The notes beneath the pieces are model-generated. The model saw only the letters and a list, made by a program, of their open reading frames with translations, was not told where the DNA came from and did no database searches. From Chloroflexota bacterium (GTDB taxonomy: Bacteria; Chloroflexota; Limnocylindria; Limnocylindrales; CSP1-4), in contig JADMIG010000001.1 of assembly GCA_015478725.1 (NCBI GenBank), positions 348,748 to 412,747 of the forward strand: a stretch of 64,000 bases of DNA. Direction: 5' to 3'. Positions 1 to 11,565 of the stretch are shown piece by piece. Both the position numbers and the translations under genes were made by a program. How positions within the stretch are numbered: position 1 is the first letter of the stretch; the number at the start of each line of letters is the position of its first letter.

Positions 1-1773
1 GTGCGGCATGGCCGGCTCCTCGGCCGGCGCGAGGCGTTCCTCGCCGAGATGGCCGATGTCGTCATCCGGGTCATGGCGGACGCGTACCCGATCCTCGTCG
101 AGCGACGATCGGAGATCCTCGCCGCGATCGAACGCGAGGAGGCCCAGTTCGCGCGGACGCTCGACGCCGGGACGAGCCATCTGGAGGTCGCGCTCGCGAC
201 GGTCCCGACGACCGAGCGGACGGTCGGGCGACGGCCCGAGGACCTGCCGCCCGACGCGCCGCAGCTCGACGGCGCGCTCGCCTTCCGGCTCCACGACACG
301 TTCGGCTTCCCGATCGACCTCACGGTGGAGCTCGCCGCGGAGTACGGCGTCGCGGTGGACCGGACGGGCTTCGCGGCCGCACTCGCCGAGCAGCGCGAGC
401 GGAGCCGGAGCGGGCGCAAGGCGGACCTCGCCCGGCACGCCGAGCGGACGAGCCTCTACGAGGCGATCCTCCGGTCGCGGGGCGAGACGCTGTTCACGGG
501 TTACGAGTCCACGAGCGCCGAGGCGACGGTCGTCGCGATCGTCCGTGAGGACGTCGAGTACGAGGAGCTGACCGGCAATGCGGCCGTCGAGGTCGTGCTC
601 GACCGAACCCCGTTCTACGCGGAGGGCGGCGGCCAGGTCGGTGACCGTGGCGTCCTGCTCGAGGCCGGGGGCGGTTCGTCGCTCATGACGGTCGCCGATA
701 CGCAGCGGCCCGTCGGCGCGCAGGGGGGCGGCCTCGTCGTCCACCGCGGCACGCTCCACGGACGGCTCCGGGTCGGCGAAACCGTGCGTGCCGCCGTGGA
801 TCGCGAGCCGCGCGAGCGGACGATGCGCAACCATACCGGCACGCACCTTCTCCATCGCGCCCTGCGCAACGTCGTCGGCGAGCGGGCGCGACAGGCGGGC
901 TCGCTCGTGACGCCGGACGGCCTGCGCTTCGATTTCCCGTTCGAGCGTGCGGTCACCGCGGAGGAACGGGCGGCGATCGAGGCGGAGGTCCGGGGCATCG
1001 TCCGCGACGCACGCCCGGTGAGCGTGACGTATCTCTCGATGGCCGACGCGATCGCCGCCGGCGCGGACGCGTTCTTCGACGAGAAGTACGGTGAGCGTGT
1101 CCGGACGGTGCGGGTCGAGGGCTACAGCCATGAGCTCTGCGGCGGCACCCACTGCGCGAACTCGGGGCAGGTCGGGAGTTTCGTCATCGTCGGCGAGCGG
1201 AGCATCGGATCCGGGGTGCGGCGGATCGAGGCCCTCACGGGCGACGGTGCCGACGCCTGGATCGGTGCGCGGCTCGAGACGCTCGACCGTGCGGCCGATG
1301 CCCTGGGGGCCCAGGCGGCGGACGTGATCGTCGAGCGGATCGGAGCCCTCCAGGGGGAACTCCGCGAAGCGCGCCGCCGACTCCGGTCCGGCGAGGGCGC
1401 CGGCAGCCCGCAGATCGCCGAGGCGGTCGCCGGCGCGGAGACCATCGGCCCGGAACTCCGCCTCATCGCCCGACAGGACGGCTGGGAGTCGATCGAGGCG
1501 ATGAAGGCGTTCGCCAAGGAGCTCCGCGGCGTGTTCCCGTCCGGCGTCATCGCGCTCGCCGACGAGCGGCCCGAGCCGCAGCTCTTCATCACCGTCAGCG
1601 ACGACCTCGTCGCCCGTGGGATCGCCGCCGGCGCCCTCGTCCGGGAGGCGGCCACGAAGATCGGCGGCAACGGTGGCGGGAGCCCCCGGATGGGCCAGGC
1701 GAAGGGCGGCGACCCGACCGCCGTCGGGCGAGCCTGGGATGCGGTCCGCGAACGCCTCCGGACCTCCGGCTGA
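1..1773 (+). CDS. alaS: alanine--tRNA ligase, C-terminal portion (5' end outside window)
   Basis: Translation contains AlaRS editing/C-terminal motifs (HTGTHLLHRALR..., CGGTHC...SGQVG...IEALTG). ORF runs from the window edge to a stop at 1773. Confidence 0.9.
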   Translation: MRHGRLLGRREAFLAEMADVVIRVMADAYPILVERRSEILAAIEREEAQFARTLDAGTSHLEVALATVPTTERTVGRRPEDLPPDAPQLDGALAFRLHDTFGFPIDLTVELAAEYGVAVDRTGFAAALAEQRERSRSGRKADLARHAERTSLYEAILRSRGETLFTGYESTSAEATVVAIVREDVEYEELTGNAAVEVVLDRTPFYAEGGGQVGDRGVLLEAGGGSSLMTVADTQRPVGAQGGGLVVHRGTLHGRLRVGETVRAAVDREPRERTMRNHTGTHLLHRALRNVVGERARQAGSLVTPDGLRFDFPFERAVTAEERAAIEAEVRGIVRDARPVSVTYLSMADAIAAGADAFFDEKYGERVRTVRVEGYSHELCGGTHCANSGQVGSFVIVGERSIGSGVRRIEALTGDGADAWIGARLETLDRAADALGAQAADVIVERIGALQGELREARRRLRSGEGAGSPQIAEAVAGAETIGPELRLIARQDGWESIEAMKAFAKELRGVFPSGVIALADERPEPQLFITVSDDLVARGIAAGALVREAATKIGGNGGGSPRMGQAKGGDPTAVGRAWDAVRERLRTSG

Positions 1774-1775
1774 CG

Positions 1776-3038
1776 ATGGCCTTCTGGCGCCGCATCTGGC
1801 AGCGCGATGGGGAGCCGGCGCTCGCTGCCTGCACCGCCCTCGACGTCGGCACGGAGTTCGCCAAGGCGCTCGTCTTCGAGATCGACGATGCGGGTCATGG
1901 CACCGTCCGCGGCGTCGGTCGCAAGCGGCAGGGACTCTCGCACATGCAGTCGGGTACGGTCGCGGACATCGGGGCCGTCGTCGACAACTGCTCGGTCGCC
2001 CTCCAGGAGGCCGAGGAGATGGCCGGCTTCCGTCCGACCCAGGTCGTCATCGGCATCGCCGGCGAGCTCGTCAAGGGCTTCACGACGACGCACAGCCAGG
2101 AGCGCCGGAAACCCGACTCGCCGATCACGGAGGCCGAGCTCCAGCGGCTCATCGACGGCGTCCAGCGAGAGGCGCTCCGGGAGGCCGAACGGGCGATCAC
2201 CTGGGAGACCGGCCTGCCGCACGTCGACGTCCGCCTCGTCCACGCGGCGATCACCGGGGCGAGCATCGACGGATACGCGCTCACGAACCCGGTCGGCTTC
2301 CAGGGCAGGCACGTCCGGATCAGCATCTTCAACGCGTTCGCGCCGCTCGTCCATCTCGGCGCACTCCAGAGCGTGGCGAGCCAGCTCGACCTCGAGCTCC
2401 TCGAGGTCGTCGCCGAGCCGTACGCCGTCGCCCGGGTACTCGGCGCGGACGGCGTCCACCAGTCCGGAGCGCTGTTCATCGATGTCGGCGGTGGGACGAC
2501 GGACGTCGCACTCGTCCGCCAGGGCGGCATCGAGGGGACGCGGATGTTCGCCCTCGGCGGTCGGGCCTTCACGAAATCGATCGCCGATCGACTCGATCTG
2601 CCGTTCCCGCGCGCCGAATCGCTCAAGGTGGACTACGCCCGCGGCCTCGATGTCCCCGATCGCGATCAGGTCGCGGCGGTCATCGCGGACGACGTGACCG
2701 TCTGGGCAGCCGGCGTTGAGCTCGTCACGGAGGAGCTGGCGGCAGGTGAGCAGCTGCCGGCCCGAATCTACCTGTGCGGCGGAGGATCGAGGCTGCCAGA
2801 GGTCCGGGCCGCCCTCGCCGCAGAACCGTTCTGGGCACGCCTGCCGTTCAGCCGTCCGCCCGAGGTGACGATCATGTCACCGGACCAGGTGACGACGATC
2901 CGCGACGGCACGGCGCTCCTCGTCGACCAGCAGGACGTCACGCCGCTCGGGCTCGCCTACCAGGCGATCGAGCTCCAGGCCGACGAGGATCCGCTCGATG
3001 CCGCGCTTCGACGGGTGCTCCGGGCGATGAAGGTCTGA
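1776..3038 (+). CDS. FtsA-family actin-like ATPase (cell-division FtsA/PilM-like)
   Basis: 420 aa with the actin-fold phosphate motifs (DVGTEF..., NPVGFQG..., FIDVGGGTTDVALV, LCGGGSRLP), arranged as in FtsA. ATG sits 3 nt after the alaS stop. Confidence 0.7.
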   Translation: MAFWRRIWQRDGEPALAACTALDVGTEFAKALVFEIDDAGHGTVRGVGRKRQGLSHMQSGTVADIGAVVDNCSVALQEAEEMAGFRPTQVVIGIAGELVKGFTTTHSQERRKPDSPITEAELQRLIDGVQREALREAERAITWETGLPHVDVRLVHAAITGASIDGYALTNPVGFQGRHVRISIFNAFAPLVHLGALQSVASQLDLELLEVVAEPYAVARVLGADGVHQSGALFIDVGGGTTDVALVRQGGIEGTRMFALGGRAFTKSIADRLDLPFPRAESLKVDYARGLDVPDRDQVAAVIADDVTVWAAGVELVTEELAAGEQLPARIYLCGGGSRLPEVRAALAAEPFWARLPFSRPPEVTIMSPDQVTTIRDGTALLVDQQDVTPLGLAYQAIELQADEDPLDAALRRVLRAMKV

Positions 3039-3049
3039 GGTCCGGGCAC

Positions 3050-4846
3050 GTGGCGAACGACACGGCGATCGTCTACCTCGACGTTGACGACGAGATCACC
3101 TCGGCGGCCACCCGCATCCGGAGTGCGGAGGCGCCGCGCATCGCCCTCGTCCTGCCGCCCGGATCGCGGCTCGCCACGTCGCGGATCAACTTCCGGCTCC
3201 TCGCTCGCGAGGCGCAGGCGCGGAGCCGGCAGCTCGTGATCGTGGCGCCGGAGGCGGCGACGCGTGCTCTGGCGGCGTCAGCCGGGATCGACGCGTACGC
3301 GGCGGTGCGGGACCTTGATGAGCCGGACGGCATCGAGCGGCACGCCGCGATCGCGGGGAGCCGCGATGCGGCGTCGGCCGAGGCATACGTCGGCGGGCCG
3401 TCCCCCCGCGCCGGCGGCGCGAGCGCGGACGCGCATCCGATCACGGCTCGGAGCACGGCCCCGGCACTGCCGGTCGTGGGAGGTGGGCGACGGCCGGGAG
3501 TCGGCGTCTCGTCCGGCCGCATCGCCGCGGTCCTCGTCGGGGTCGCCATCCTCCTGCTCGCGATCATCGGATACGTCTTCCTGCCGGCCGCCACCATCGT
3601 CGTCACGCCCAGGATCGATCCGCTCGGACCCCTTACGTTCACCGTCCGCGCAGACCCGACCGCGTCCGCGCCTGACGCGGCGACGGGTGTCGTGCCGGCG
3701 ACGGTCCCCACGTTTCCGCTGACCGCGTCGGGCACGTTCCCCTCCAGCGGCAAGAAGGTGACGAACACGGCGGCCACGGGCTCGGTGACATTCTCGAACA
3801 TCGATCCGTTCGCCCAGCACACGATCGCGGCCGGAAGCGTCGTTTCGACGCCCGATGGGATCGGGTTCGCGACGACGCGGGTCGTCATCCTCAACCCGGC
3901 CCAGCTCGTGGACTCCGGTGGCAACATCGTCATCGTGCCGACGACCGGCAGCTCGCCGGTGACCGCGGTGGCGGGCGGGACGGCGGGGAACGTGGGGGCC
4001 GGCGCGATCCGGATCCCGCCGCCGGACCAGAATGCACGGAAGATCCAGGTCCGCAACCCGGCGCCCACGAGCGGTGGGTCCCACACGGAGGCGCTCATCA
4101 TCGCCCAGAAGGACATCGACGCGGCGACGGCCTCACTCGCGACCCAGCTCGCGACCCAGCTCGACGCCACGATCGCCGATCCATCCCAGGTTCTGCCCGG
4201 CTCGACGGTCTTTCCGGAGACGAAGGCGATGACGGCTGCGACACCGACGGTCGATCCGACGACGCTCGTCGGCCAGCAGGTGACCTCGTTCAGCTACGGG
4301 CTGACCGCCACCGGCAGCGTGACCGCCGTCGATCTGGCGGCGGTCGAGGCACTCGCGACCGCGCAGCTGAGCTCGAGCGTCGCGGCGGACCACACGCTGG
4401 TCGCCGGATCGGCGCAGGTGACGGTCGGCAAGGGTCGCCTCCAGTCCGGCACGATCGTCTTTCCGGTCCGGGCGACGGCGCAGGAGGCGCGGACGCTGAC
4501 GGGAGTCGACTTGCTCGCTCTCGTGAAGGGCAGGTCTGTCGCGGAAGCCGAGGTCGCCCTCGGACCCTACGGGACCGCGAGCATCACGCTCTGGCCCGGG
4601 TTCACGGACCGCGTTCCGGGCTACGACTTCCGGATCGACCTCCGCATCGCGGCCGGTTCGGGTCCCGCCGGGCCAGGCGGTGGGGGCGCGACGCCGGCTT
4701 CTCAGCCACCCGCCGGCACGGACCGGCCGTCCGGGGGCAGCGCGCCGAACGGGATTCCGACGAAGGTGCCTCCGACGAACAGTCCAGCACCGAGCATGAC
4801 GCCGAGCGGTCCGTCGCCGAGCGCGGCGGGGAGCGGGGCACCGTGA
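3050..4846 (+). CDS. bitopic membrane protein: about 160 aa cytoplasmic domain, one TM helix, large Pro/Thr/Ser-rich extracytoplasmic domain (uncharacterised)
   Basis: GTG start 12 nt after the upstream stop, with a GAGG 8 nt before it. A single hydrophobic helix (AAVLVGVAILLLAIIGYVFL) is followed by about 420 aa rich in T/S/P/G. The stop overlaps the ruvX GTG (GTGA). Confidence 0.55.
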   Translation: MANDTAIVYLDVDDEITSAATRIRSAEAPRIALVLPPGSRLATSRINFRLLAREAQARSRQLVIVAPEAATRALAASAGIDAYAAVRDLDEPDGIERHAAIAGSRDAASAEAYVGGPSPRAGGASADAHPITARSTAPALPVVGGGRRPGVGVSSGRIAAVLVGVAILLLAIIGYVFLPAATIVVTPRIDPLGPLTFTVRADPTASAPDAATGVVPATVPTFPLTASGTFPSSGKKVTNTAATGSVTFSNIDPFAQHTIAAGSVVSTPDGIGFATTRVVILNPAQLVDSGGNIVIVPTTGSSPVTAVAGGTAGNVGAGAIRIPPPDQNARKIQVRNPAPTSGGSHTEALIIAQKDIDAATASLATQLATQLDATIADPSQVLPGSTVFPETKAMTAATPTVDPTTLVGQQVTSFSYGLTATGSVTAVDLAAVEALATAQLSSSVAADHTLVAGSAQVTVGKGRLQSGTIVFPVRATAQEARTLTGVDLLALVKGRSVAEAEVALGPYGTASITLWPGFTDRVPGYDFRIDLRIAAGSGPAGPGGGGATPASQPPAGTDRPSGGSAPNGIPTKVPPTNSPAPSMTPSGPSPSAAGSGAP

Positions 4847-5331
4847 CCCGATTGCTCGCCATCGACCTCGGCGAGCGCCGCATCGGGCTCGCCGTCGGGG
4901 ACGATCTGCGCGGCGGAGCCGTTCCGTTGACGACGGTCGCGCGCGGACGCTCCATCGCCGACGACGTCGCCACGCTCGGCCGGGTGGTCCAGCGGGAACG
5001 GATCGACGAGCTCATCGTGGGCCTGCCCATCGACACCGCGGGCACGGAGGGTGTCCAGGCCGACCGCACCCGCAGCTGGGCGGCGGCCGTCGCGGCAGAT
5101 CTCGACCGCCCGATCGCTTTCCGGGACGAACGATTCTCGAGCCGCATCGCCGAGGAGCGCCTCGGACCAATGCCGCGCGGCCGGTCCGGCGGTCCGCCGA
5201 CGGCGACGCAGCGCAACCGGTACCGGGCCCGCGTCGACCGCGAGGCGGCGGCGATCATCCTCGAGGCCGAGCTCCGCGCCCGCGCCGGGACCGCCCCGGC
5301 CCCGGCCCCGGTGGGAGGCACCGAGCGATGA
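4843..5331 (+). CDS. ruvX: Holliday-junction resolvase-like nuclease YqgF/RuvX
   Basis: N-terminus LLAIDLGERRIGLAVGDD is the YqgF signature. It lies in the conserved alaS-ruvX-mltG neighbourhood. Confidence 0.85.
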   Translation: MTRLLAIDLGERRIGLAVGDDLRGGAVPLTTVARGRSIADDVATLGRVVQRERIDELIVGLPIDTAGTEGVQADRTRSWAAAVAADLDRPIAFRDERFSSRIAEERLGPMPRGRSGGPPTATQRNRYRARVDREAAAIILEAELRARAGTAPAPAPVGGTER

Positions 5332-6695
5332 CGATCCGACGGGGCGGCCCGCCCCGCGGCCGCGCGGATGCGGCCCCCGACCAGGCGCACGTCGTCGGTG
5401 GCGTCGACGGCGTCGACCGCACGATCGAACGCCCGCCCGCCCGGGACCGGCGTGATCGCCGACGACCGACGGGTGGCGGAGGTCGCGGTGGGTTCGGCGG
5501 GCTGGTCCGCTTCGTCGCCTTCGCCCTCGTCCTCGGCGCCGTCGTCCTCGTCGGCCTCGTCACGGTCCTCCGACCGGTCGCGGCGGGAGCGATCGTCGGC
5601 TGGGCGTCTGACAACCCGACCGCGCTCGGCATCCCGTTCGTCGCGGATCTCGTCCGCGAGGATCTCGGCGCCTCCCTCACGGCGGCCCCGAGCACGGACG
5701 CGACGGAGGTCGACTTCATCGTCGCGCCCGGCGACACGGCCCGCGGGATCGCGGCGCGACTCCAGACCCAGGGCCTCCTGATCGATGCCCGAGCCTTCGT
5801 GTTCACCGCGATCGAGCGAAGTCTGACGAGCAAGCTCGAGGCCGGAACGTTCATCCTGCGCCGCAACATGACGCCCGACCAGCTCGTCACGGCGCTCCTC
5901 CAGGCGAAGAGCCTCGCCATCGACATCTCGTTCCGCGAGGGTCTCCGGGTCGAGCAGATGGCCGCCAAGCTCGAGACGCTGCCAGTCACGCTGGACCCGA
6001 AGCAGTTCTACGACCTCGCGATGCACCCGACCGCCTCGATCCTCGCCGCCCATCCATGGCTGCAGCTGCCGAAGGGCGCCTCGCTCGAGGGGTTCCTCTA
6101 CCCGGCGACGTACCAGGTGCTTCCCTCGATCACGCCGGAGCAGCTCATCGGCAAGATGCTCGATGCGTTCTACACGCAGGTCGGACAGGCGCGCGTCGCC
6201 GTCCCGGCGAGCCGCGGCCTCACGTTCTACCAGGTCGTGACGATGGCCTCGCTCGTCGAGCAGGAGGCGAGGCTCGACGCCGAACGGCCGCTCATCGCCG
6301 GCGTCTTCCAGAACCGGCTCGACCCGAAGCTCTTCCCGACCCGCCTGCTCCAGTCGGACACGACGATCTTCTACATCAACGACACCGTCCAGCTCGCGAA
6401 GATCCCGTTCGCGGCGTGGGCCCAGTACTCGTTCTGGGGCCCGTTGACGGCACCGATCAAGGATTCGAGCGTCTCACCGGCGCTCGCCAAGTACGACACG
6501 TACACGGCTCCGGGACTCATGCCGGGGCCGATCTGCTCGCCCTCGCTTGCATCGATCGACGCCGTGCTCCATCCGGACACCGCGACCGGCTACCTCTATT
6601 TCGTGGCCAGGAACGACGGCTCGAACACCACCGCGTTCGCGAGGACGCTCGCCCAGCACGAGATCAACGTCCGCAAGTACAGCAGCGCGCCCTGA
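5328..6695 (+). CDS. mltG: endolytic murein transglycosylase MltG (YceG family)
   Basis: ATGA overlap with ruvX. It has an N-terminal TM segment and a YceG-like domain (motifs such as LYFVARNDGS, TLAQHE). Conserved synteny after ruvX. Confidence 0.8.
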   Translation: MTIRRGGPPRGRADAAPDQAHVVGGVDGVDRTIERPPARDRRDRRRPTGGGGRGGFGGLVRFVAFALVLGAVVLVGLVTVLRPVAAGAIVGWASDNPTALGIPFVADLVREDLGASLTAAPSTDATEVDFIVAPGDTARGIAARLQTQGLLIDARAFVFTAIERSLTSKLEAGTFILRRNMTPDQLVTALLQAKSLAIDISFREGLRVEQMAAKLETLPVTLDPKQFYDLAMHPTASILAAHPWLQLPKGASLEGFLYPATYQVLPSITPEQLIGKMLDAFYTQVGQARVAVPASRGLTFYQVVTMASLVEQEARLDAERPLIAGVFQNRLDPKLFPTRLLQSDTTIFYINDTVQLAKIPFAAWAQYSFWGPLTAPIKDSSVSPALAKYDTYTAPGLMPGPICSPSLASIDAVLHPDTATGYLYFVARNDGSNTTAFARTLAQHEINVRKYSSAP

Positions 6696-6745
6696 CGGGC
6701 GTCCTCCGTGTCGGCTGACGCAGCGCCGCGGGCGGGTCCGCGATT

Positions 6746-6766
6746 GAGGCTCGGGCGGCGAGCCTC
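6746..6766 (+). terminator. 8-bp stem hairpin (GAGGCTCG-ggcgg-CGAGCCTC) 50 nt after the mltG stop; no U-tract
   Basis: Perfect inverted repeat read directly from the sequence. It sits between mltG and efp. Confidence 0.3.
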
Positions 6767-6769
6767 GGC

Positions 6770-6775
6770 TACAAT
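6770..6775 (+). promoter_or_regulatory. TACAAT -10-like hexamer upstream of efp
   Basis: GGCTACAATCC lies 82 nt upstream of the efp ATG, immediately after the hairpin. No clear -35. Confidence 0.2.
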
Positions 6776-6856
6776 CCGCTCCACCACACCGTCACGTTCC
6801 GCCGGCCTTCGCGCGTTGCCCTCCGGCGACCGATGGCCAGCCCAGGAGCCCCACCC

Positions 6857-7414
6857 ATGATCAGCACCGGCGAACTGCGCAAGGGCGTCGCCATCGAGCT
6901 CGACGGCGATCTCTGGCAGATCCTCGACTATCACCACATCAAGATGGGCCGTGGCTCGGCCCAGGTCCGGATCACCCTCCGCAACATCAAGCGAGGCCAG
7001 ACCGTCGAGCGGAGCTTCCAGGCCGGCACCAAATGGCCGCGCGCCCAACTCGACCGGCGGCCCGTCCAGTTCCTCTACCGGGACGGCGACGAGTTCCATT
7101 TCATGGAGAACGAGACGTACGACCAGTTCCACCTGACGGCGGAGCAGCTCGCCGACGCGGCCCTCTACCTCAGGGACGGGATGACCCTCGACCGGACCAG
7201 CTACCAGGGTGAGACGATCGGCGTCGAGCTGCCGGTCACCGTCGACCTCACGGTGACCGAGACGGAGCCGGGGTTCGCGGGCGACACGCAGACCGGCGCG
7301 CGCAAGCCGGCGACCACGGACACCGGCCTCGTTGTCCAGGTGCCGATCTTCGTGAGCGAGGGGGACACCATCCGGATCGACACCCGGACCGGCGAGTACC
7401 AGACCCGCGTCTGA
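6857..7414 (+). CDS. efp: elongation factor P
   Basis: MISTGELRKG...KMGRGSAQVRI...ETEPG are EF-P signature motifs. ATG chosen at M9 of the ORF to match EF-P N-termini. Confidence 0.9.
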   Translation: MISTGELRKGVAIELDGDLWQILDYHHIKMGRGSAQVRITLRNIKRGQTVERSFQAGTKWPRAQLDRRPVQFLYRDGDEFHFMENETYDQFHLTAEQLADAALYLRDGMTLDRTSYQGETIGVELPVTVDLTVTETEPGFAGDTQTGARKPATTDTGLVVQVPIFVSEGDTIRIDTRTGEYQTRV

Positions 7415-7510
7415 GCTCGTCGCCATCCGCTCAGGAGCGGTCGGCCCGCGGGTGTCCGCTCGCGCCGTGGCGCGCCGCATGGCCCGGGGCGTCTCGCTGG
7501 GCACGGATCG

Positions 7511-8986
7511 ATGAGCGATCCGCTCGATCCCCCGGACTGGGCATTGCCCGCCTGGGACGCGGATCGGTCCGCGACCCGCCCGAGCGTCGGCGGGCCGCAC
7601 CGGGACGAGCGCGCCGAGGGACGATCGCCGGCCGACCGACAACCCCCGTCGCTGCGCATCCTCGCCGTCACGGACGTCACCCGCGCCGTCCGGGACGCGG
7701 TCCGCGGCGACGAGCGCCTCCGCGACCTGTGGGTCGAAGGCGAGGTCGGGCGGGTGACGATCTCCAGCGCCGGCCACGGGTATTTCAACCTCAAGGACGA
7801 GCGGAGCCAGCTCGCCTGCATCTGGTTCCGCGAGGACCGCCTCGCGTCGCCGTTCGAGGCACGGGTAGGCCTGCGGATCGTCGCCCACGGCCGCCTCGAC
7901 GTCTTCGAGCCGGGCGGGGTGTACCAGCTCTACGTCGACGCCGTGCAGCCCGCCGGGTTCGGCGATCTCGCCATCCGCTTCGAGGCGCTCAAGGCGCGGC
8001 TCGCCGCCGCCGGCCTGTTCGACGCAGCAAGGAAGCGTCCTCTGCCCGGACGCCCGGCCGTCGTCGCGGTCGTGACGAGCGCGACCGGCGCGGTGTGGCA
8101 CGACATCGTCCGCGTCGTCGAGCGCCGCTGGCCGCTGACACGGGTCATCCTCTCGCCGTGCCTCGTGCAGGGCGACGGCTCGGTCCCGAGCATCGTCCAC
8201 GCCCTCGAGCGGATCGACCGCTGGGCGGACCGCCTCACCGCGGACGGTCGGGGCGTGGAGACGCCCACGGTCACGATCCTGGCTCGCGGGGGCGGGTCGC
8301 TCGAGGATCTCTGGAGCTTCAACGACGAGGCGGTCGTGCGGGCGGTCGTCGGCCACGGACGGCCCGTGGTGGCGGCGATCGGCCACGAGACGGACGTGAC
8401 GCTGGCGGACTTCGCGGCAGACGTGCGGGCCCCGACACCGTCGGCGGCCGCCGAGCTCGTCGTGCCCGACCGCGCGGAGGCGCTCCGACGTGTCGCGGCA
8501 CTCGACCGTCGCGGGCAGCTCGCCGCGGAACGCCGGATCGGCACGCTCGGCGTCGTTCTCGGCAATGAGCGGCGGGTGCTTGCCGGTCTCCATCCCGCGG
8601 TCCGGATCGCTGCCGATCGAGAGCGGAGCGGGGCACTCCTCGACCGTGCCACCGCCGCGGCCGGGATGCGGGTCGAGCGATCCGCAGCACGACTCGCCCG
8701 GTCCGTGTCGCTCATCCCGATCGTCGTCCGACGGGAGCTGGGCGGCGCCGAGAACCGGCTCATGGTGGCGGCGGCAGCGCTCGGCGCACTCGGTCCGCAG
8801 GCCACCCTCGAGCGCGGCTACGCGATCGTCCGGCGGATCGACGATGCGCGGATCCTCCGCGTCCCGACGGATGCCCCTCCCGGCACCGGCCTGACGATCC
8901 GCCTTGCCCACGGCGACCTTGCGGCGACCGCCGGGCCACGATTCCGCCCTCGATCCGGGGCGGCGGGCGAGATCGCCGATCCATGA
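7511..8986 (+). CDS. xseA: exodeoxyribonuclease VII large subunit
   Basis: OB-fold N-terminus (VEGEVGRVTISSAGHGYFNLKD) and a catalytic/coiled-coil region. It is followed by xseB. Confidence 0.85.
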   Translation: MSDPLDPPDWALPAWDADRSATRPSVGGPHRDERAEGRSPADRQPPSLRILAVTDVTRAVRDAVRGDERLRDLWVEGEVGRVTISSAGHGYFNLKDERSQLACIWFREDRLASPFEARVGLRIVAHGRLDVFEPGGVYQLYVDAVQPAGFGDLAIRFEALKARLAAAGLFDAARKRPLPGRPAVVAVVTSATGAVWHDIVRVVERRWPLTRVILSPCLVQGDGSVPSIVHALERIDRWADRLTADGRGVETPTVTILARGGGSLEDLWSFNDEAVVRAVVGHGRPVVAAIGHETDVTLADFAADVRAPTPSAAAELVVPDRAEALRRVAALDRRGQLAAERRIGTLGVVLGNERRVLAGLHPAVRIAADRERSGALLDRATAAAGMRVERSAARLARSVSLIPIVVRRELGGAENRLMVAAAALGALGPQATLERGYAIVRRIDDARILRVPTDAPPGTGLTIRLAHGDLAATAGPRFRPRSGAAGEIADP

Positions 8987-9120
8987 TCGGCGATCTCCTC
9001 ATGCTCGCGGTGATCGTCGTCGTGACCGCTGCGATCGGCTTCGTCATCGGTAAGCTCATCGCGCCGCGCCTCATGCGGTCGACCGATCGAGAGGAGCGAG
9101 ACGATGACGAGCCCCGATGA
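8983..9120 (+). CDS. unannotated small hydrophobic protein (45 aa, one predicted TM helix)
   Basis: ATG overlaps the xseA stop (ATGA). Translation is MIGDLLMLAVIVVVTAAIGFVIGKLIAPRLMRSTDREERDDDEPR. Codons are GC3-rich. It ends 17 nt into xseB. Below the ORF-track length cut-off. Confidence 0.4.
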   Translation: MIGDLLMLAVIVVVTAAIGFVIGKLIAPRLMRSTDREERDDDEPR

Positions 9121-9403
9121 CGCGGCCCTGAGCCGGTCGCCGTCCGTGGCCGCTGCCGATGACGGGCTGACGTTCGACGCGGCCCTTGCGGAGCTCGAGC
9201 GGATCGTGGCCGCCCTCGAGGCCGGTGGCGCGCCGCTCGAGACGACGCTCGAGCTCTACGAGCGCGCGGTCGCGCTCGAGTCCCGCTGCTCCGCGTTGCT
9301 CGCGGAGGCGCGGCTGCGGATGGAACGTCTCGTCGAGCGGAGCGGAGGCCGGCTCGAGACCGTCGCCATCGAGGACCGCGCGGCGACCGAGCCCGGCGCC
9401 TGA
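9104..9403 (+). CDS. xseB: exodeoxyribonuclease VII small subunit
   Basis: LTFDAALAELERIVAALE...LELYERAVAL matches XseB. GAGGAG RBS upstream. Confidence 0.8.
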   Translation: MTSPDDAALSRSPSVAAADDGLTFDAALAELERIVAALEAGGAPLETTLELYERAVALESRCSALLAEARLRMERLVERSGGRLETVAIEDRAATEPGA

Positions 9404-9495
9404 CTGTGCCCCGGTCGGCCGGCCCGTCCTCGGGACGCTCGCGGCCGGTCGGCGTAGACTCCGCTCGCCGCCGGACCCATCCCCGGCCCGGCCGC

Positions 9496-11565
9496 ATGGC
9501 GACCGCGCGTGAACCGACCATGAGGAGCATCGCCGACGTGTCGATCCTCGAGCGCGTGAGTGCGCCCGCCGACCTCCGTGGACTCGATCGCGAGCAGCTC
9601 GATGAGCTCGCCGCGGAGATCCGGGAGACGATCGTCTCGACCGTCGCCCGCACGGGCGGCCATCTCGGCAGCTCGCTCGGCGTCGTCGAGCTGACGATCG
9701 CCCTCCATCGCCTGCTCGACTCGCCGCGGGACCGGATCGTCTGGGACACCGGGCATCAGGCCTATCCGCACAAGCTCCTCACCGGGCGCGTGGCGCGGTT
9801 CCATACCCTGCGCCAGCTCGATGGAGTGGGTGGCTTCCCGCGTCGGAGCGAGTCAGAGCACGACGTCTTCGACGGCGGCCACGCGGGCACCGGTCTCTCG
9901 ATCGGCGAGGGCCTCGCCACCGCACGCGATCTTCGCCACGGCCGCGAGCGGATCGCCGTCGTCGTCGGTGATGCGGCCCTCATGAGCGGACTCTCGTTCG
10001 AGGCGCTCAATGACGTCGGCCAGCGCCAGACGCGGATCCTCATCGTCCTCAACGACAACGAGATGTCGATCAGCCCGACGGTGGGCGCACTGTCGAAGTA
10101 CCTCTCCACGATCAAGCTCTCGACCGCCTGGCAGACGAGCAAGTCGGCCTATGACCGGGCGATCGAGCGGCTGCCCATCATCGGCGAGACTGCGCTCGAT
10201 CTCTCGAAGCGGGTCCGGCGCTCCGTCGTCCAGTTCGTGCAGCAGCCGGGCAGCCTGTTCGAGGACCTCGGCATCACCTACATCGGCGTCGTCCCGGGTC
10301 ACGATCTGGGGGTCCTCGAGGACACGCTCGGGCGCGCGCTCGAGCTGCGCGGGCCGGTCCTGGTCCACGTCCGGACCCAGAAGGGGCGAGGCTATCGACC
10401 GGCGGAGACGGACCAGGTCGGCTTCCATGGCGCGGCGCTCCCGCCGATGGGCGATGTGGCGCGGGCGGAGGTCGCCGCCGTCGCCACACGACCGCGAGCC
10501 TGGTCCGCGATGCCGACCGAGTCGATGATGGATGATGCGGCGCCGCCGACGCCCGTCGTCGAGGCCGTGAAGCCGCCGAACTACACGGCGGTCCTCGTCG
10601 GCGAACTCATCGCAGCGGCTCGCGACGACCGCCGGATCGTCGCGATCACGGCGGGGATGCCGACCGGCACCGGCCTCAACCGCTTCCAGGCCGAATACCC
10701 GGACCGGTTCCTCGACGTCGGGATCGCCGAACCGCACGCGGTGACGCTCGCGACGGGGCTCGCCATGGGCGGTGCCCGTCCCGTCGTCGCGATCTACTCG
10801 ACGTTCCTCCAGCGCGCCTTCGACCAGACGGTCCACGACGTGTGCCAGAACGACCAGCCGGTGATCCTCGCCGTCGACCGGGCGGGACTCGTGGGCGAGG
10901 ATGGCACGAGTCACCAGGGGATGTTCACCCTGCCGGCCCAGCGCCAGCTCCCGAACCTCGTCATCGCGAGCCCGAAGGACGAGCAGGAGCTCCGCTCGCT
11001 CCTCCGGACCGCGCTCGCCCAGGATCATCCGTTCGCGATCCACTATCCGCGCGACCCGGGCTTCGGTCTCCCCCCGGCGGAGCCGGCGATCCTGCCGATC
11101 GGGCGCGGCGAGCTCGTGCGGTCCGGGACGGACGTCCTCATCGTGGCCTTCGGGCCGATCGTCGCCCGGGCTCGCGAGGCGGCAGAGGCCCTTGCCGCGG
11201 AGGGCTGGTCCGTCGCGGTCGTCAACGCCCGGTTCGCCAAGCCGCTGGACCGGCAGCTCATCCTCGACGAGTCGCGTGGCAAGCGGCTCGTGGTGACCGT
11301 GGAGGAGAGCGTCGTCGTCGGCGGGTTCGGTTCGGGCGTCCTCGAGCTGCTCGAGGAGGCTCGGATCGTGGATCCGGCCTATCGCGACGTCGTCGTCAAG
11401 GTCGTCGGCATCCCCGCCGGCCGGTTCGTGGACCACGGATCGGTGGCCGATCTGCGGCGGCTCCTGCGCCTCGATGCGGCCGGTCTCGCCGCCCAGACGA
11501 GGGAGACACTCGCCGTCCTCGGGGCGACGCCGGGACACGCGGCGGAGGCCGCGGCCGCGAGCTGA
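9496..11565 (+). CDS. dxs: 1-deoxy-D-xylulose-5-phosphate synthase
   Basis: Thiamine diphosphate motifs (GHLGSSLGVVEL, GDAALMSG, DGTSHQG) and transketolase-like architecture. An alternative ATG lies at 9520. Confidence 0.9.
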   Translation: MATAREPTMRSIADVSILERVSAPADLRGLDREQLDELAAEIRETIVSTVARTGGHLGSSLGVVELTIALHRLLDSPRDRIVWDTGHQAYPHKLLTGRVARFHTLRQLDGVGGFPRRSESEHDVFDGGHAGTGLSIGEGLATARDLRHGRERIAVVVGDAALMSGLSFEALNDVGQRQTRILIVLNDNEMSISPTVGALSKYLSTIKLSTAWQTSKSAYDRAIERLPIIGETALDLSKRVRRSVVQFVQQPGSLFEDLGITYIGVVPGHDLGVLEDTLGRALELRGPVLVHVRTQKGRGYRPAETDQVGFHGAALPPMGDVARAEVAAVATRPRAWSAMPTESMMDDAAPPTPVVEAVKPPNYTAVLVGELIAAARDDRRIVAITAGMPTGTGLNRFQAEYPDRFLDVGIAEPHAVTLATGLAMGGARPVVAIYSTFLQRAFDQTVHDVCQNDQPVILAVDRAGLVGEDGTSHQGMFTLPAQRQLPNLVIASPKDEQELRSLLRTALAQDHPFAIHYPRDPGFGLPPAEPAILPIGRGELVRSGTDVLIVAFGPIVARAREAAEALAAEGWSVAVVNARFAKPLDRQLILDESRGKRLVVTVEESVVVGGFGSGVLELLEEARIVDPAYRDVVVKVVGIPAGRFVDHGSVADLRRLLRLDAAGLAAQTRETLAVLGATPGHAAEAAAAS

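Follow-up and report, generated by a model that had tools for sequence, protein, structure and literature searches.

Two adjacent genes between alaS and ruvX encode a protein of the actin fold (gene A) and a large membrane protein with a single transmembrane segment (gene P), and the pair looks like an undescribed, ancient cell-envelope module. A literature search found neither experimental data nor publications on the A-P family. In the explanation that we favour, the module would have been present already in the ancestor of Chloroflexota, Dormibacterota and the Candidate Phyla Radiation (CPR). In what follows, the window is the whole stretch of DNA that was analysed (64 kb). The genes of the locus are:

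1-1773, + strand: 3′ part of alaS (alanyl-tRNA synthetase), an ORF; the domains tRNA-synt_2c, tRNA_SAD and DHHA1 are found on orthologous genes
1776-3038, + strand: gene A, predicted 420-aa FtsA-related actin-fold ATPase of an alaS-linked FtsA-like family (ORF and Pfam PF14450)
3036-3049, + strand: stop codon of A and 11-nt spacer, read directly from the sequence
3050-4846, + strand: gene P, uncharacterised 598-aa bitopic (N-in/C-out) membrane partner (ORF, transmembrane segment and structure model)
4843-5331, + strand: ruvX (PF03652, 3.8e-28; ORF coordinates)
5328-6695, + strand: mltG, YceG-like endolytic transglycosylase (PF02618, 7.7e-67; TIGR00247)

These genes are tightly packed. The ATG of A lies two bases 3′ of the alaS stop, an SD-like TGAGG (3036-3040) precedes the GTG of P by 9 nt, the GTG of ruvX overlaps the stop of P (GTGA), and the start of mltG overlaps the stop of ruvX. 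No promoter- or terminator-like sites were seen in positions 1-9500. The GTG at 3050 is taken as the start of P, in preference to a longer ORF from 2774, because alignments with homologues of 550-670 aa begin at residues 4-7. The ORFs thus reproduce the coordinates, the layout and the overlap of the P stop with the ruvX start given in the original prediction, and Pfam and NCBIfam confirm its identification of RuvX and YceG/MltG.

Gene A belongs to the FtsA/PilM branch of actin-fold proteins and, judging by its intact motifs, its product is predicted to bind ATP. It matches the Pfam family FtsA, PF14450 (1.9e-14; 54.5 bits for a cut-off of 31.8), and its top PDB matches are FtsA. The family profile ranks FtsA best (4e-28, through the IC region), followed by PilM (2e-19) and MreB (5e-11); it aligns with residues 5-262 of Vibrio FtsA, IC region included, while PilM aligns with the C-terminal half only. 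The match of gene A to MreB (PF06723) covers just 76 residues, profile positions 110-185 of 327. That the first gene encodes a full-length FtsA/PilM-type actin-fold protein, as first proposed, is therefore upheld by Pfam, NCBIfam and PDB/profile matches. Its features are:

1779-1808, + strand: N-terminal basic/aromatic amphipathic segment (AFWRRIWQRD, residues 2-11), candidate membrane-binding helix; hydrophobic moment 0.54
1842-1865, + strand: phosphate-1 motif (D23-K30, LDVGTEFAK); D23, G25 and K30 invariant in 18 members from three phyla
2481-2504, + strand: phosphate-2 motif (D236-D243, DVGGGTTD); D236, G238 and T242 invariant in 18 members
2775-2798, + strand: adenosine-binding motif (C334-P341, CGGGSRLP); G335 and G336 invariant in 18 members
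2991-3035, + strand: C-terminal amphipathic helix (PLDAALRRVLRAMKV, residues 406-420), candidate FtsA-like membrane-targeting sequence; hydrophobic moment 0.64-0.68

The phosphate-1, phosphate-2 and adenosine motifs are all intact, as expected of an FtsA-type actin-fold ATPase, and DVGGGTTD is the sole actin-type phosphate-2 motif in the window. Both terminal segments have hydrophobic moments like those of known membrane-targeting helices. The N-terminal one is conserved in Limnocylindria, with comparable short segments in other phyla. The moment of the C-terminal helix ranks among the highest in the protein; this helix is conserved across phyla and is present (residues 406-419) in a structure model of A that is otherwise poor (pLDDT 54.6). 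The sequence of A is strongly constrained, with 73-91% identity across 76 genomes. Its median identity of 83% compares with 81% for EF-P, 62% for AlaRS and 41% for P, and A and P evolve at strongly different rates. Offshoots of the A family turn up in unrelated settings, among them a TIR fusion and a fusion of 969 aa, and databases variously name the pair FtsA, PilM, 'actin', 'baseplate J' or 'hypothetical'.

Gene P has more than 1545 homologues. Its structure model is confident (pLDDT 83) and displays a head, a linker, a transmembrane helix and an ectodomain:

3050-3325, + strand: cytoplasmic head (residues 1-92), small alpha/beta domain with the motif YLDVDDEITSAA...TSRINFRLLAREA
3326-3517, + strand: disordered juxtamembrane linker (residues 93-156); pLDDT <50, median identity 24%
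3518-3583, + strand: transmembrane helix (~residues 157-178); Kyte-Doolittle peak 2.9, helix 157-176 in the model
3587-4099, + strand: beta-rich ectodomain region (residues 180-350), including a Baseplate J/gp47-like barrel at ~240-350
4100-4654, + strand: long helix (353-376) and alpha/beta C-terminal ectodomain (residues 351-535); pLDDT 91-98 over 351-530, median identity 45%
4667-4843, + strand: Pro/Gly/Ser-rich disordered tail (residues 540-598), lineage-specific; pLDDT ~40

Hydropathy reveals a single transmembrane segment, and the N terminus is placed in the cytoplasm because an Arg-rich sequence precedes this segment. The bitopic design described from the outset, a head in the cytoplasm and a large domain outside, is thus borne out by hydropathy and by the model. 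The head is modelled as a STAS-like alpha/beta domain, and a RodZ-type helix-turn-helix was not found in it. It is also the most conserved part of P (median identity 69%, for 45-48% in the ectodomain), as expected if it contacts the highly conserved A. In Ktedonobacteraceae ~390 residues separate the head match from the ectodomain match. The ectodomain is enriched in Ala, Thr, Val, Gly, Pro and Ser; its residues 351-535 align full length with a CPR homologue. The final 58 residues contain 26% Pro and 21% Gly, and this tail is missing from the Azambacteria homologue, where the alignment stops at the homologue's last residues.

The original prediction had P matching nothing recognisable, which no longer stands, as the ectodomain holds a Baseplate J/gp47-like barrel. 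The similarity is detected by Pfam PF04865 (in homologues), PHROG_6, PDB and BFVD; PF04865 does not match the window's own P even at E up to 10. In sequence it is limited to this one barrel of ~110 residues. Longer Foldseek alignments have TM-scores of at most 0.24 and the remainder of the ectodomain superposes poorly. Many databases nevertheless label P homologues 'baseplate J/gp47 family protein'.

Gene-neighbourhood data establish that the pair is strongly co-conserved, a point on which the initial proposal depended. In Limnocylindria-type loci that carry both genes, A immediately precedes P, in the same orientation, in 80 cases out of 80. All five genes, alaS-A-P-ruvX-mltG, are found in 68 of 81 loci; of the 13 incomplete loci, 12 lie on contigs that break off ahead of the missing gene. 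The alaS-A-P order recurs in Azambacteria, Dormibacteria, Ktedonobacteraceae, Berkelbacteria and two further CPR lineages, where homology of P is supported by hhalign probabilities of 99.6 and 95.5 and by hmmsearch E-values of 4e-11 to 6e-52. Consequently, the idea that the two genes had been wedged in locally gives way to an arrangement that is standard across Chloroflexota, Dormibacterota and CPR, with alaS as the upstream neighbour in nearly all lineages examined. Other neighbours vary. In Azambacteria the genes after P are infA and those of ribosomal proteins; uppP/bacA, SLT and mreB lie in the neighbourhood of the module in other lineages, and the mreB beside it in Berkelbacteria is a normal one.

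Given these data, we attribute about an even chance to A and P being a co-transcribed two-gene module that works as a membrane scaffold and its envelope partner. The product of A would be held against the inner side of the membrane by its N- and C-terminal amphipathic segments, probably as filaments or oligomers like its relatives, and would bind the conserved ~90-residue cytoplasmic head of P. The latter would span the membrane once and expose, in the wall space, a large ectodomain built around the Baseplate-J/gp47-type barrel. In this way, a cytoplasmic nucleotide-dependent scaffold could position or regulate an extracytoplasmic assembly, most likely serving envelope growth or division by analogy and by neighbourhood (mltG, uppP/bacA, SLT and mreB). 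The data show the structure of the genes, their domain architecture, the fold of P, the intact ATP-binding motifs of A, its unusual conservation and the co-conservation of the pair. That A binds the membrane, polymerises and touches P, and that the module acts in the envelope or in division, is inferred, as is the divisome or pilus role first suggested. The cluster alaS-ruvX-mltG is a widespread, conserved housekeeping cluster, so that the linkage to mltG is weak functional evidence. A more far-reaching form of the proposal, possible but on balance somewhat unlikely, is that bacteria have a third, so far overlooked actin-based envelope system beside the FtsA divisome and the MreB elongasome, with A and P at its core. 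It would be ancestral to a Chloroflexota/Dormibacterota/CPR clade, with a near-invariant membrane-bound filament organising, via P, an extracytoplasmic platform made of a domain that phage baseplate wedges also have.

An alternative that we consider unlikely is that A is the genuine FtsA of the lineage, which ties the FtsZ ring to the membrane and whose gene has left the dcw cluster, and P a lineage-specific divisome protein of the FtsN, FtsQ or DivIB kind. FtsA indeed gives the best matches among solved structures, in an alignment that runs from the N terminus through the IC region; the C-terminal amphipathic helix resembles the FtsA membrane-targeting sequence, and the very high conservation of A fits an essential division protein. 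However, A is better not classed as FtsA: it scores 101.2 bits with TIGR01174 (FtsA; cut-off 175.85) and 48.8 bits with NF007009 (cut-off 409), PF02491 (SHS2_FTSA) matches none of 18 A-family members, and ftsZ is not adjacent, the gene being placed between alaS and ruvX in every alaS-linked locus examined. No FtsZ signature was detected in the window or in the 92 fetched loci (1.28 Mb) scanned. On the side of P, there is no Pfam, NCBIfam or fold match to FtsQ, DivIB, PilN, PilO, POTRA or SPOR, which answers the initial concern that P might be a known FtsQ/DivIB/PilN member. FtsA-domain genes adjoining ftsZ are reported to be conserved in Terrabacteria and CPR (PMC9871819), and ftsA and ftsZ to be adjacent in Dehalococcoidia (PMC10608941); on this evidence the gene next to alaS would be an additional paralogue.

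The relationship of A to P could also be trivial, the two being functionally unrelated, forming no complex, and kept adjacent by operon inertia in an old housekeeping cluster. Under this explanation, to which we assign a low probability, the pair would resemble its flanks alaS, ruvX, mltG and efp, which are functionally heterogeneous and equally syntenic, and the strong difference in evolutionary rate between A and P speaks for it. A can exist without an adjacent P, as seen in a closed Peregrinibacteria genome, where one A-family member lacks both alaS and a partner within 10 kb. Yet A-P adjacency persists where the flanks change, namely in Azambacteria, in loci L090 and L092, where mltG is not downstream, and in locus L012, where ruvX is missing. 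The head as the most constrained part of P and an architecture that parallels known actin-partner pairs also argue for a functional module.

It is highly improbable that the pair belongs to a type IV pilus or competence machine, with A as a PilM-type protein and P as an alignment protein like PilN/PilO. The name 'pilus assembly protein PilM' is given to CPR members in some databases, CPR often have type IV pili, and 15 of the 18 A-family members match PF11104 weakly. The gene A of the window, however, reaches only 19 bits with PilM_2 (PF11104; cut-off 27) and 27.7 bits with TIGR01175 (PilM; cut-off 133), P lacks a PilN or PilO match, and no pilB/C/N/O/T or pilin gene lies beside the module in any alaS-linked locus. 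In addition, type IV pilus loci of Saccharibacteria have their own PilM/N/O (PMC11623550). Finally, that P is left over from the baseplate gene of a prophage or contractile injection system, in a locus of mobile-element debris, is very unlikely and close to negligible: the barrel similarity speaks for it, but P is anchored by a transmembrane helix with a cytoplasmic head and has no PADLOC match, alaS-linked loci contain no tail or baseplate cluster (sheath, tube, gp48/I partner), the GC content of the locus resembles that of its flanks, and the synteny with core genes extends across three phyla.

The favoured reading of A and P as an envelope module matters for several reasons. CPR and Chloroflexota represent a large share of bacterial diversity, and their envelope building and division are little known experimentally. 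A protein as conserved as EF-P is here paired with an unannotated membrane protein of 550-930 residues, so that the two are a strong candidate for a core function of the cell that annotation has missed. It also offers a testable handle, as Ktedonobacteria are cultivable and some Saccharibacteria genetically tractable. P would add a second case in which a cell, not a phage, uses a Baseplate-J-type barrel. The alaS-A-P-ruvX order could serve as an independent character on the proposed CPR-Chloroflexota sister relationship; if a third actin-based system does exist, finding both genes between alaS and ruvX would count as a rare genomic character in favour of a common origin of these lineages.

Comparison with known proteins shows where the module stands apart. 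Unlike the Baseplate J, gp47 or gp6-type wedge proteins of contractile tails (PF04865, PHROG_6), P is a cellular, membrane-anchored protein with a cytoplasmic head and no other linked tail genes. GlxA of Streptomyces lividans (barrel domain PF21110; PDB 4UNM) is a copper oxidase whose catalytic domain resembles galactose oxidase; P shows no such domain or match.

With the IA-IC cleft, FtsA and PilM each bind a bitopic protein, FtsN and PilN respectively, at its cytoplasmic end (PMC7613929). As in FtsA-FtsN (PDB 7Q6F/7Q6I), A has an FtsA-type topology aligning through the IC region, conserved ATP-binding motifs and a C-terminal amphipathic helix, and its partner is bitopic with a cytoplasmic N terminus and a large outer part. 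In contrast to FtsA, A falls under the equivalog cut-off, has no SHS2_FTSA match, lies neither beside ftsZ nor in a dcw cluster and carries an extra N-terminal amphipathic segment. The outer domain of P is Baseplate-J-like and not SPOR, and its cytoplasmic part is a folded 90-residue domain where that of FtsN is a 30-residue peptide; the mode of A-P binding may therefore differ from that of FtsN or PilN. The PilM-PilN pair (PDB 2YCH, 3JC8) likewise has an FtsA-like ATP-binding protein encoded directly upstream of a bitopic one whose cytoplasmic end it binds, and PF11104 similarity links A weakly to PilM. It differs in its linked pilus genes and in PilN, which is 5-6 times smaller than P; no PilN or PilO fold match was seen for P.

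RodZ is a bitopic protein with a folded cytoplasmic head, a disordered linker, a transmembrane helix and an outer domain, and is bound by the membrane-bound, actin-like MreB filament. P is built in the same order, with a head predicted to be alpha/beta and STAS-like rather than helix-turn-helix. MreB binds the membrane via an amphipathic helix (PMC7613929). A, however, belongs to the FtsA branch (25.6 bits with the NCBIfam mreB model TIGR00904, cut-off 365.75), and Ktedonobacteria, reported to be without mreBCD, keep the A-P module.

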